Virus record (IMG/VR): IMGVR_UViG_2778261503_000007
DNA: 4,505 bases
Origin: a virus
Lineage: Duplodnaviria > Heunggongvirae > Uroviricota > Caudoviricetes
Direction: 5' to 3' (one strand)
Each line of letters starts with the position of its first letter. Position 1 is the stretch's first letter. This document shows, in pieces, positions 1,142 to 1,391 of the stretch. The notes under the pieces are model-generated. The model had not been told where the DNA came from. It saw only the letters and a list, made by a program, of their open reading frames with translations, and searched no databases. Position numbers and translations under genes: made by a program.

Positions 1142-1218
1142 TGGCGCGTTGTACTGGATTCGAACCACTGACCGATTGCTTAGAAGGCAATTGCTCTGTC
1201 CTGCTGAGCTAACAACGC
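1142..1218 (-). tRNA. argO: tRNA-Arg (anticodon UCU), 77 nt
   Basis: Reverse complement is GCGTTGTTAGCTCAGCAGGACAGAGCAATTGCCTTCTAAGCAATCGGTCAGTGGTTCGAATCCAGTACAACGCGCCA. Perfect acceptor stem GCGTTGT/ACAACGC, D-arm GCTC/GAGC, anticodon stem ATTGC/GCAAT with loop CTTCTAA (anticodon TCT, as in argU), T-loop TTCGAAT, discriminator G plus CCA. Symbol is by position only. Confidence 0.78.
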
Positions 1219-1231
1219 AGAATACCGATAA

Positions 1232-1308
1232 TGGACCACCATCGGGGACCCGAACTCCGCGCAACCAGCTTCGAAAGCTGGCGCTCTTTCCTGATGAGCT
1301 AATGGCGG
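1232..1308 (-). tRNA. argN: tRNA-Arg (anticodon UCG), 77 nt, with some non-canonical features
   Basis: Reverse complement is CCGCCATTAGCTCATCAGGAAAGAGCGCCAGCTTTCGAAGCTGGTTGCGCGGAGTTCGGGTCCCCGATGGTGGTCCA. Acceptor stem CCGCCAT/ATGGTGG (one G-U), D-arm GCTC/GAGC, perfect anticodon stem CCAGC/GCTGG with loop TTTCGAA (anticodon TCG), encoded CCA. T-arm has one A-C mismatch and an unusual TTCGGGT loop. Symbol is by position only. Confidence 0.55.
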
Positions 1309-1315
1309 TATGTGA

Positions 1316-1391
1316 TGGTGGCCCTTGCTGGATTTGAACCAGCGACCTGGCGATTATGAGTCGCTCGCTCTCACCACTGAGCTAAAGGGCC
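1316..1391 (-). tRNA. ileZ: tRNA with CAU anticodon (Ile2/lysidine type or Met), 76 nt
   Basis: Reverse complement is GGCCCTTTAGCTCAGTGGTGAGAGCGAGCGACTCATAATCGCCAGGTCGCTGGTTCAAATCCAGCAAGGGCCACCA. 7-bp acceptor stem GGCCCTT/AAGGGCC, D-arm GCTC/GAGC, anticodon loop CTCATAA (anticodon CAT), perfect T-stem GCTGG/CCAGC with TTCAAAT loop, encoded CCA. Resembles E. coli ileX. Symbol is by synteny with the Stx-phage ileZ-argN-argO trio. Confidence 0.8.

Follow-up and report, generated by a model that had tools for sequence, protein, structure and literature searches.

The ileZ-argN-argO tRNA cassette of a lambda-like Escherichia coli prophage and the probable decay of its middle member

Introduction

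The closest described relatives of the locus considered here are the tRNA cassettes of Stx2 phages such as 933W, VT2-Sakai, Stx2a_F723 and their relatives, in which ileZ, argN and argO follow the Q gene and precede the moron slot. The gene names are those of the GenBank annotations of such phages. To our knowledge, E. coli K-12 possesses no tRNA-Arg(UCG), its tRNA-Arg genes being argQVYZ (ACG), argX (CCG), argU (UCU) and argW (CCU), so that argN adds a new anticodon and duplicates no host gene. A further function of a lambdoid phage tRNA is documented for the tRNA-Thr(UGU) of phage 21, which counters the anticodon-arm nuclease P2-OLD, whose substrates are characterized by a paired CNG at positions 28-30/40-42 together with A37 (PMC12445682).

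The window, i.e. the whole stretch of 4,505 nucleotides analysed here (IMG/VR record IMGVR_UViG_2778261503_000007), carries at positions 1142-1391 the tRNA trio ileZ-argN-argO, well known from lambdoid and Stx phages, as part of a lambda-like E. coli prophage. The middle gene of this copy is structurally damaged and probably in decay, an ordinary state for argN.

The tRNA cassette and its prophage setting

The features of the window that are relevant for the argument are the following.

1142-1218, minus strand: tRNA-Arg (anticodon UCU; argO type) with a G50.G64 T-stem mismatch, CCA encoded (ARAGORN; Rfam)
1232-1308, minus strand: tRNA-Arg (anticodon UCG; argN type), derived allele with A52.C62, G58, G3.U70 and U32, CCA encoded (ARAGORN; Rfam)
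1316-1391, minus strand: tRNA-Ile2 (anticodon CAU; ileZ type), intact consensus allele (ARAGORN; Rfam; PGAP)
1127-1431, minus strand: mobile tRNA module common to Stx phages (megablast against phages)
1429-1454, minus strand: intrinsic, tR'-like terminator, G+C-rich hairpin AACCCGCCGCCGAGCGGGTT followed by a T run (terminator scan and direct reading)
1502-1529, minus strand: pR'-like late promoter (read directly in the sequence)
1535-2356, minus strand: Q-family late antiterminator gene, 273 aa (Pfam PF03589 Antiterm, 183 bits; PGAP 'antitermination protein')

ARAGORN finds exactly three tRNA genes in the window (tct 1142-1218, tcg 1232-1308 and cat 1316-1391), all on the minus strand, on which the original prediction had been silent. 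Infernal with Rfam RF00005 returns the same boundaries and folds, with scores of 72.5 bits (E 4e-15) for ileZ, 45.5 bits (E 1e-7) for argN and 62.3 bits (E 3e-12) for argO at a gathering score of 29 bits, so that the three matches lie far beyond chance. The types Ile-CAU, Arg-UCG and Arg-UCU, initially read from the letters, are confirmed by both programs with identical outer limits (1142-1391), and a different fold, boundaries or anticodon for the middle tRNA is ruled out by the agreement of ARAGORN, Infernal and PGAP. In E. coli ZH063, the identical sequence is annotated by PGAP as tRNA-Ile, tRNA-Arg and tRNA-Arg without a pseudogene flag. Weak Rfam matches to Plastid-ycf2 (antisense to ileZ), Trp_leader (over the terminator) and sR55 stay below threshold and are either chance hits or the tRNAs and the terminator themselves.

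The suggested relationship with the ileZ, argN and argO genes of Stx phages holds, with 93% identity to Stx2 phage records that carry those gene names. In total, 273 phage records match the cassette at 92-93% identity, several of them annotated ileZ, argN and argO, and the gene order Ile2(CAU)-Arg(UCG)-Arg(UCU) and the spacers of 7 and 13 nt are identical to the annotated phage cassettes. By megablast, the Stx phage matches span query positions 10-314 of the 1100-1440 minus-strand segment at 92-93% identity, i.e. the similarity extends from approximately 40 nt before ileZ to approximately 15 nt past argO.

Positions 78-4428 of the window are 100% identical to CFT073, ZH063 and other chromosomes, in which PGAP annotates the same genes; the window is a prophage fragment of the CFT073 type with an IS1 terminus at either end. 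The cassette, with the start of ileZ at 1391, stands on the same strand downstream of the Q gene (2356-1535) and of the terminator (1454-1429), which is placed 37 nt upstream of ileZ between the two genes. The pR'-like promoter consists of TTGATT (1529-1524), a 16-nt spacer and TGn-TAAATT (1510-1502) followed by AACGATGGG; with a score of 8/12 it falls under the scan cut-off of 9/12. It probably resembles lambda pR', which has the -10 element TAAATT and the AACGAT pause element.

The layout of Q gene, pR'-like promoter, tR'-like terminator and trio suggests a late, Q-dependent transcription of the cassette. The trio would be transcribed mainly when Q lets RNA polymerase pass the terminator in lytic development, and host enzymes would cut the tricistronic precursor into three CCA-ending tRNAs for ATA, CGA/CGG and AGA/AGG. 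That the trio decodes rare codons, as previously proposed, agrees with codon usage: compared with the core genes of the same genome, in which they are scarce, these codons are enriched in the genes of the prophage (ATA 4.1-fold, AGA 14.8-fold, AGG 12.7-fold, CGA 2.6-fold and CGG 2.9-fold). The codons of argN are the least limiting of the three sets, and the ranking of conservation, ileZ before argO before argN, fits the weaker enrichment of CGA/CGG.

The outer tRNA genes

The window allele of ileZ is identical in 104 of the 118 related loci listed and 100% identical to ileZ of Stx2a_F723. With its Ile2-type body and CAU it is a predicted tRNA-Ile2 with a lysidine-type anticodon; PGAP, which separates Ile2 from Met, annotates tRNA-Ile in several genomes, and ARAGORN labels the gene Met(cat) because it reads the anticodon only. 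Relatives of ileZ at 80-95% identity are present in every E. coli genome. The assessment that both outer members look canonical stands for ileZ, a consensus allele whose A27.C43 is found in every ileZ allele compared, but not for argO, for which the Infernal alignment displays the G50.G64 T-stem mismatch, the score of 62.3 bits compares with 65.8-71.7 bits for other argO copies (Rfam) and the predicted fold is without a T-arm.

The middle tRNA gene

Although the weakest of the trio, argN exceeds the RF00005 threshold and aligns over model positions 1-71 of 71. Its acceptor (7 bp), D (4 bp) and anticodon (5 bp) stems are fully paired with one wobble, the additional G3.U70, and its anticodon loop UUUCGAA is of canonical length (7 nt) with the anticodon UCG, U33 and A37. 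The A-C mismatch in the T-stem and the T-loop UUCGGGU lacking A58, which had been noticed by eye, are both seen in the Infernal alignment: the T-stem CGGAG/CCCCG falls short of five pairs through A52.C62, which adjoins the conserved G53-C61, and G58 replaces A58 in a T-loop that keeps its UUC. A58 is near-universal in tRNAs, where it pairs with T54 (reverse-Hoogsteen T54-A58), and its loss should disturb this pair. On the other hand, the C at position 1, equally taken as a sign of degeneracy by the original prediction, is ruled out as a defect, as C1-G72 is near-invariant in the family: of 16 diverse members compared, 15 have it, the canonical argN of Stx phages among them.

Neither the minimum-energy nor the centroid fold predicted for the window argN has a T-arm, whereas canonical and G58-only argN alleles are predicted to fold as a cloverleaf (minimum-energy fold); however, such predictions frequently fail for real tRNAs, the intact ileZ also being predicted without a cloverleaf. 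E. coli ArgRS recognizes tRNA-Arg by the identity set A20, C35, G/U36 and A/G73. The window argN possesses A20 (in the D-loop AUCAGGAAA), C35 and G36, and the purine at position 73 is replaced by the discriminator U73, as in nearly every E. coli argN allele, the canonical Stx type among them; A73 occurs in some other genera.

Alignment with the Stx2a_F723 genes, as originally suggested, reveals 8 substitutions in argN compared with none in ileZ and three in argO. The score of 45.5 bits compares with 55-56 bits (55.1-56.0) for canonical argN and 54.0 bits for the G58-only allele (Rfam). Of 16 diverse family members, 14 have G-C or G-U at pair 52:62, the window allele and its sister being the only ones in which the pair is broken, and the sister A52/G58 alleles additionally carry A6.A67, A50.C64, U10.C25 and a change of CCA to TCA. 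An uncompensated pair break combined with further decay in close relatives is the pattern expected of a pseudogene.

The three genes differ in their fate among the 118 related loci listed. In sets that were not conditioned on the gene scored, intact copies amount to 106/118 for ileZ (approximately 90%, pi 0.008), 72/118 for argO (approximately 61%) and 37-39/118 for argN (approximately 32%), with a further 32-37 copies of argN being rearranged (pi 0.08-0.11); ARAGORN calls argN in 76 and ileZ in 110 of these loci. Among the matches listed, argN is scrambled, deleted or fused in approximately 30% of about 150 related loci and is the cassette member most often destroyed, the stages comprising point lesions, a 66-nt form without the anticodon arm, argN/argO fusions and an 80-nt non-tRNA form. 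As IMG/VR loci are redundant, such locus counts are not counts of independent events.

The exact window allele of argN is present in 32 of 5426 complete E. coli genomes, and the A52/G58 family to which it belongs (at least 95% identity) in approximately 860 complete E. coli chromosomes, one O157:H7 copy being located in an IS-riddled prophage. None of the 284 phage records carrying argN contains a member of this family (best identity 92.1%), an absence that may be a sampling effect since the phage collection consists mostly of Stx phages.

The 80-nt non-tRNA allele fills the argN slot in 1813 of the 5426 E. coli genomes. Its interpretation as a randomly decayed, scrambled argN is partly rejected: the 5' insert GAGCAGACGACA is shared with an 81-nt form that 95% of E. 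coli genomes carry once, as a relic between yahL and yahM, which makes the 80-nt allele a distinct lineage or a recombinant.

Related scaffold elements in other prophages

Arrays related to the cassette, composed of Met/Ile2-CAT, a scaffold element in the second slot, Thr-TGT and Gly-TCC, directly follow a Q gene in other prophages. Across Enterobacteriaceae, this second-slot scaffold occurs in 14 variants among 60 copies with an entropy of 0.03-0.09 bit per position, and its anticodon loop of 5-6 nt, without U33, is hypervariable (27 loops, approximately 1.0 bit per position); for the neighbouring tRNA-Thr, the entropy of the anticodon loop is zero. In most genera, the acceptor, D and T arms of the scaffold are almost invariant and the loop differs between prophages. 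The Escherichia versions of the same scaffold bear Arg(UCG), Arg(UCU), Arg(GCG) or Lys(UUU) arms or a non-tRNA insert.

Pairs with the same scaffold and different loops mostly have diverged flanks (median 26-35% matched), which lends no support to a recent hypermutation aimed at the short loops; a few scaffold pairs that are 97-98% identical still differ at 1-2 of 5 loop positions.

Discussion

With fair though incomplete confidence, we consider the middle gene of the cassette a partly disabled tRNA on its way to becoming a pseudogene. Of the readings considered, the proposal of a weakly functional or decaying copy has the best support, in view of the 8 differences, the loss of approximately 10 bits, the T-arm missing from the predicted fold, the breaks in sister alleles and the frequent destruction of the slot. 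The case is built on the frequency and fixation of the breaks and not on their proportion, because the A52/G58 family displays no significant excess of pair-breaking changes over canonical alleles (kept/broken 3/2 versus 4/4, Fisher p = 1). A probable background is the residence in an IS-bounded prophage remnant, in which selection on late-gene translation is weak; argN is moreover the member with the least limiting codons.

That argN is still a working tRNA-Arg(UCG), which tolerates A52.C62 and G58 and is kept for the Watson-Crick reading of CGA (and CGG) late in the cycle, is unlikely, yet it accounts for a number of observations. The gene is called by ARAGORN, by Infernal with 16 bits to spare and by PGAP, has normal boundaries, three intact stems, the U33/A37 loop, the ArgRS identity elements A20, C35 and G36 and an encoded CCA, belongs to an allele family that is common in E. 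coli, and addresses codons that are enriched in prophage genes, so that it may have retained function, as the persisting tRNA-Arg label of the annotation pipelines suggests. G58 alone costs only 1-2 bits and leaves the predicted cloverleaf in place, and the A.C mismatch is not to be over-read, since such pairs are evidently tolerated elsewhere in the family (A27.C43 in all ileZ alleles seen; A51.C63 in conserved scaffold alleles of several genera). Against these points stand the score below that of the canonical alleles together with the T-arm missing from the fold, the expected disturbance of T54-A58, the confinement of the 52:62 break to this lineage among diverse members, sister alleles that go on gaining breaks up to the loss of CCA, the absence of the allele family from the argN-carrying phage records and the destruction of the slot in approximately one third of E. 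coli genomes with the flanking genes kept.

Very unlikely, in our estimate, is that the middle slot holds a tRNA-shaped non-decoding RNA, either one that counters defence nucleases which cleave tRNAs, as a decoy or as a replacement, or a structural punctuation mark needed for precursor processing, so that changes in the anticodon and T arms would be neutral or adaptive. The scaffold conserved across Enterobacteriaceae with its hypervariable anticodon loop and the position of the scaffold arrays directly after a Q gene speak for such a role, as does the protection against P2-OLD conferred by the phage 21 tRNA-Thr(UGU), which derives from the same kind of array, and the anticodon stem of the window argN contains the paired CNG and A37 reported for OLD substrates (PMC12445682). 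But the window loop is a canonical 7-nt UCG loop, and the Arg-type sub-family to which the allele belongs has the look of a normal decoding tRNA in Stx phages; many prophages that retain ileZ and argO have a deleted, fused or scrambled middle slot, which argues against an essential processing role; and the mostly diverged flanks of same-scaffold pairs make the different loops explicable without active diversification. The broader proposition that the middle gene belongs to a conserved family of tRNA-shaped scaffolds in the late arrays of enterobacterial lambdoid prophages, which are primarily non-decoding, is likewise assigned a low probability; if it were true, with the family acting as nuclease decoy, inhibitor or processing element, the damage in the window argN would be irrelevant or adaptive and not decay. 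A variant in which argN serves as a P2-OLD-resistant replacement tRNA is unsupported by its sequence, because argN itself carries the paired CNG motif and A37.

Finally, C70U creates G3.U70, reportedly the main recognition pair of AlaRS (Hou and Schimmel 1988; McClain and Foss 1988), in the window allele only among 16 diverse members (alignment pair 3:71), but a recoding or toxic tRNA that is mischarged with Ala and reads CGA/CGG as Ala is hardly credible, considering the poor AlaRS context (C1-G72, C2-G71 and U73 instead of G1-C72, G2-C71 and A73), T-arm lesions that probably reduce the steady-state level, and the fact that a single transition to a wobble pair is the commonest neutral stem change.

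For the window itself, all this matters little: its tRNA cassette is of the textbook prophage kind, and its sequence is 100% identical to that of annotated UPEC genomes. Of more general relevance is that pipelines label argN as tRNA-Arg even where an allele lacks A58 and has two of its stems broken, and leave the very common 80-nt derivative unannotated, so that tallies of additional tRNA-Arg genes in pathogenic E. coli give too high a figure for the functional tRNA supply. The cassette also exemplifies unequal selection within one operon, in which ileZ hardly changes, argO is conserved to a moderate degree and argN has decayed widely. The conserved scaffold with its hypervariable non-decoding loop is the only part able to raise a new question, and its presence in the late regions of many Enterobacteriaceae prophages provides a link to recent work on phage tRNAs in counter-defence.

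Comparison with known systems

The window cassette has the genes, gene order and both spacers of the Stx2 phage cassettes, with 100% identity for ileZ and approximately 93% for the whole module. It differs in its Q, which is of another type (273 aa, PF03589, compared with 144 aa in Stx2a_F723), in the lack of stx genes after the cassette, in the 8 changes of argN that include A52.C62, G58 and G3.U70, and in G50.G64 of argO. Among host genes, the tRNA-Ile2 genes ileX/ileY and the tRNA-Arg(UCU) gene argU fulfil the same ATA and AGA/AGG decoding tasks as ileZ and argO; unlike those rare-codon tRNAs, the window tRNAs follow a terminator, and their expression is probably confined to the late phase of lytic growth. 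The phage 21 tRNA-Thr is also a lambdoid-phage tRNA, and the related scaffold arrays contain Thr(TGT) after a Q gene as well, whereas the window cassette has no Thr gene and its argN resembles by sequence an OLD substrate rather than a resistant replacement. As for bacterial tRNA pseudogenes and relics, every stage of decay is found among the relatives of argN; unlike these, the window argN is still recognized as a tRNA by all three methods and remains unflagged.

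The tRNA trio and its prophage setting

All three tRNA genes are encoded on the minus strand with exactly the outer coordinates of the original prediction, and ARAGORN and Infernal are concordant on the boundaries of each, Infernal recovering a cloverleaf every time (Rfam tRNA model, threshold 29 bits).

1391-1316, minus: tRNA with anticodon CAU (ileZ); ARAGORN; Infernal/Rfam tRNA, 72.5 bits
1308-1232, minus: tRNA-Arg(UCG) (argN), the middle gene; ARAGORN; Infernal/Rfam tRNA, 45.5 bits
1218-1142, minus: tRNA-Arg(UCU) (argO); ARAGORN; Infernal/Rfam tRNA, 62.3 bits

The CCA end is encoded in all three, and the spacers measure 7 nt (ileZ-argN) and 13 nt (argN-argO). 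As PGAP calls tRNA-Ile, tRNA-Arg and tRNA-Arg, without a pseudogene flag, on the identical DNA of E. coli ZH063, the CAU gene is of the Ile2 (lysidine) type and not Met.

The window represents a late-regulatory piece of a lambdoid prophage that IS1 has cut out at either side. Positions 78-4428 are 100% identical to the CFT073, ZH063 and clone D chromosomes and to those of further extraintestinal E. coli, and this 4.35-kb prophage fragment is flanked by two IS1 copies in the same orientation, the right end of one at 1-77 and the left end of the other at 4429-4505 (75/77 and 67/77 matches to the ends of a PGAP-annotated IS1). Both junctions together were found in no complete E. coli genome of the collection.

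3789-2740, minus: DUF968 gene
2727-2371, minus: RusA gene
2356-1535, minus: Q antiterminator, 273 aa (PF03589, 183 bits)
1529-1502, minus: pR'-like promoter (TTGATT, 16 nt, TGn-TAAATT), read by eye
1454-1429, minus: intrinsic terminator (terminator scan)
642-511, minus: DUF3927 mini-ORF
445-256, minus: STnc100 sRNA, strong match (Rfam, 132 bits)
78-230, plus: iraM, truncated by the left IS1 (mapped from the PGAP annotation of an identical chromosome)

The pR'-like promoter scores 8/12, under the cut-off of the promoter scan, which thus left it unreported. It is directly followed by the motif AACGATGGG, which we take to resemble the lambda pR' pause site, and promoter, motif and terminator (1429-1529, minus) delimit a predicted leader RNA of about 65 nt. 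An ORF of 117 aa (678-1031, minus) without Pfam match sits in the slot of the stx genes in Stx phages; it is probably non-coding, since the PGAP annotation of ZH063, identical here, has no gene at this place.

Lesions of argN and argO

The argN sequence reads CCGCCAU UA GCUC AUCAGGAAA GAGC G CCAGC UUUCGAA GCUGG UUGCG CGGAG UUCGGGU CCCCG AUGGUGG U CCA. The Infernal alignment bears out all three features on which the original prediction had based a possible degeneration of this gene, C1, the A52.C62 mismatch and G58; C1 is no lesion, C1-G72 being found in 15/16 diverse relatives. Relative to the canonical Stx-phage cassette, ileZ shows no difference, argO 3 and argN 8 (positions 17, 20a, 32, 44, 52, 58, 63 and 70). 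The C70U change creates the pair G3.U70 (argN, 1232-1308, minus), which is specific to the window and occurs in no other allele examined.

Infernal ranks the argN alleles sensibly, from 55.1-56.0 bits for the canonical gene over 54.0 for an allele with G58 only and 45.5 for the window allele down to 42.9-43.4 for sister alleles with an additional A6.A67, while scrambled, deleted or fused forms gave no hit at E <= 1. The outer genes had both been described as canonical, which does not hold for argO: allele comparison reveals a T-stem mismatch, G50.G64 (AGUGG...CCAGU), which is absent from the two common alleles; their T-stems pair correctly, either as ACUGG...CCAGU or, doubly changed and compensated, as AGUGG...CCACU. 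By its sequence, the window argO resembles an intermediate in which compensation is half complete, or a recombinant of two co-adapted alleles with the crossover in the T-loop. The A27.C43 of the window ileZ is common to every ileZ allele seen. In RNAfold, the minimum-energy structure is the cloverleaf for canonical and G58-only argN; the window argN is predicted to lose the T-arm, with the U32 change letting the anticodon loop zip up, and argO its T-arm likewise, folds to be taken as indicative only, since RNAfold does not give the intact ileZ a cloverleaf either.

Decay across related loci

About 150 related viral-contig loci were collected with two anchors, ileZ and argO, and no gene was scored in the set that was anchored on it. 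Among the matches listed, ileZ is intact in 106/118 loci (nucleotide diversity 0.008), argO in 72/118 and argN in only 37-39/118, with point defects in 40-43 and indels or rearrangements in 32-37 of the 118 argN loci listed (diversity 0.08-0.11); ARAGORN calls ileZ in 110/118 and argN(UCG) in 76/118 of the loci among these matches. The wrecks comprise an 80-nt form, whose anticodon arm is replaced by a foreign insert and whose T-loop has 6 nt, a 66-nt form without anticodon arm (L015, L068, L076) and fusions of argN to argO with the junction in the anticodon loop (L022, L049, L095); argO itself can be cut off after the anticodon by unrelated sequence (L020, L075, L077, L100).

Across 16 diverse 77-nt members of the argN family, 96.7% of cells are paired versus 30-53% in slid controls, four pairs show both-sided changes, and the covariation score was reached by 0/500 shuffles; 14/16 members form pair 52:62 as G-C or G-U, and only the window and its sister break it. 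The family is thus a constrained cloverleaf from which the window lineage departs. A52 and G58 define the sub-family to which the window gene belongs, and its other members have further unpaired positions (A6.A67, A50.C64, U10.C25) and a CCA->TCA change. Stem breaks are rare singletons in the canonical family and fixed in the A52/G58 family; the ratio of pair-breaking to pair-keeping stem variants shows no significant difference between the two (p = 1). That argN still works is considered unlikely.

The exact window allele is present in 32/5426 complete E. coli genomes; a further 828 have relatives of at least 95% identity. The 80-nt non-tRNA derivative (L002 9147-9226; about 30 IMG/VR loci, e.g. 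L014, L030, L081), highly conserved and unannotated by PGAP, fills the middle slot in 1813/5426. argN occurs in 284 records of a phage collection consisting mostly of Stx phages, the nearest at 92.1% to the window allele, and A52/G58 and G58-only alleles are absent among these. A sister-allele copy in O157:H7 lies in a prophage that IS1203 and IS66 elements interrupt and whose lysis genes are inverted.

A conserved scaffold in Enterobacteriaceae

The 5' 20-mer of argN, run against a set with a single genome for each bacterial species, retrieved 53 loci across Enterobacteriaceae. Most genera carry an element of 73-74 nt that shares the argN scaffold (the acceptor, D and T arms); its anticodon stem is RCAAC/GUUGU, and the loop lacks U33 and is just 5-6 nt long (L160-L251, e.g. 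L162 about 7700-7773, L167 1474-1547, L184, L228). Most of these are missed by the Rfam tRNA model and labelled tRNA-??? with two-base anticodons by ARAGORN; they belong to Met/Ile2-CAT, X, Thr-TGT, Gly-TCC arrays that follow a Q gene, in Pseudescherichia directly (PF06323). Sixty pooled scaffold copies display 27 different loops on only 14 scaffold variants, one variant with 7 loops; entropy per position is about 1.0 bit in the loop versus 0.03-0.09 in the almost invariant 68-nt scaffold, and 0.000 in the anticodon loop of the adjacent tRNA-Thr(UGU). As pairs that share a scaffold but differ in the loop mostly have diverged flanks, recent hypermutation of the loop is not supported, and the pattern appears to be one of long-term constraint on the scaffold and none on the loop.

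In Escherichia, the same scaffold is combined with UCG, UCU, GCG (all Arg) or UUU (Lys) anticodon arms; loci with such arms are L031 and L165 (UCU), L146 (GCG) and L008, L009 and L177 (UUU). C33 and the T-stem mismatch A51.C63 characterise the common Lys-type allele; L009 is a flawless tRNA-Lys(UUU). An 81-nt tRNA-like relic of the scaffold between yahL and yahM (L253 2501-2581, E. coli E2865; ARAGORN "Ser(gga)") is single-copy in 5169/5426 E. coli genomes (95%) and is also found in E. albertii, E. ruysiae, E. whittamii and Shigella. It overlaps with the annotated start of the yahM ORF, lacks an RNA annotation, and has GAGCAGACGACA in common with the 80-nt derivative. A primarily non-decoding role of the conserved scaffold, shared by argN as a member, would fit the free loops and is considered improbable.

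Codon usage and proposed mechanism

Relative to a set of 37 core genes from ZH063 itself, the ZH063 prophage is enriched 4.1x in ATA, 14.8x in AGA and 12.7x in AGG, and less in CGA (2.6x) and CGG (2.9x). In the host, CGA and CGG are read by the abundant ICG and by CCG tRNAs; ATA, AGA and AGG rely on tRNAs of very low abundance. With the weakest enrichment and this host cover, argN would contribute least and be the first lost when selection on lytic growth relaxes. Alanyl-tRNA synthetase recognises its tRNAs mainly by a G3.U70 pair; mischarging of argN with alanine through this pair would be very improbable.

A known cassette with an impaired, decaying argN is the reading that we consider fairly probable. 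Q lies upstream of the tRNAs, with the terminator between Q and ileZ, all on the minus strand; Q-dependent read-through of the terminator would transcribe the tRNAs, host RNases would process the tricistronic precursor, lysidine would be formed on ileZ, and argN and argO may suffer reduced stability or function. The initial observation is confirmed and its interpretation partly supported.

Comparison with known systems

The tRNA-Thr(UGU) of the lambdoid phage 21 counters the P2-OLD nuclease (PMC12445682), which lends credibility to a counter-defence reading of arrays of this kind. [quoted passage not shown] The argN stem CCAGC/GCUGG contains such a motif (CAG/CUG) together with A37, and the stems of ileZ (GCG/CGC) and argO (UUG/CAA) lack it; by the criteria of that paper (PMC12445682), argN would thus be a substrate rather than a P2-OLD-resistant replacement.

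Likeness to Stx phages in the phage search is limited to about 1127-1431, the tRNA module itself. In Stx2a_F723, the homologues are annotated ileZ, argN and argO and placed between Q and stx2A, and an STnc100 element, also present in most related loci, lies just after stx2B (L003 4696-4901, 208 bits; in the window 256-445, minus). There it adjoins the anti-sRNAs AsxR/AgvB on the opposite strand, for which the window gave no match. The predicted leader RNA may be comparable to lambda 6S RNA and to the StxS sRNA of Stx phages. The feature as such is already known, and the degenerate middle gene is real and typical for argN.
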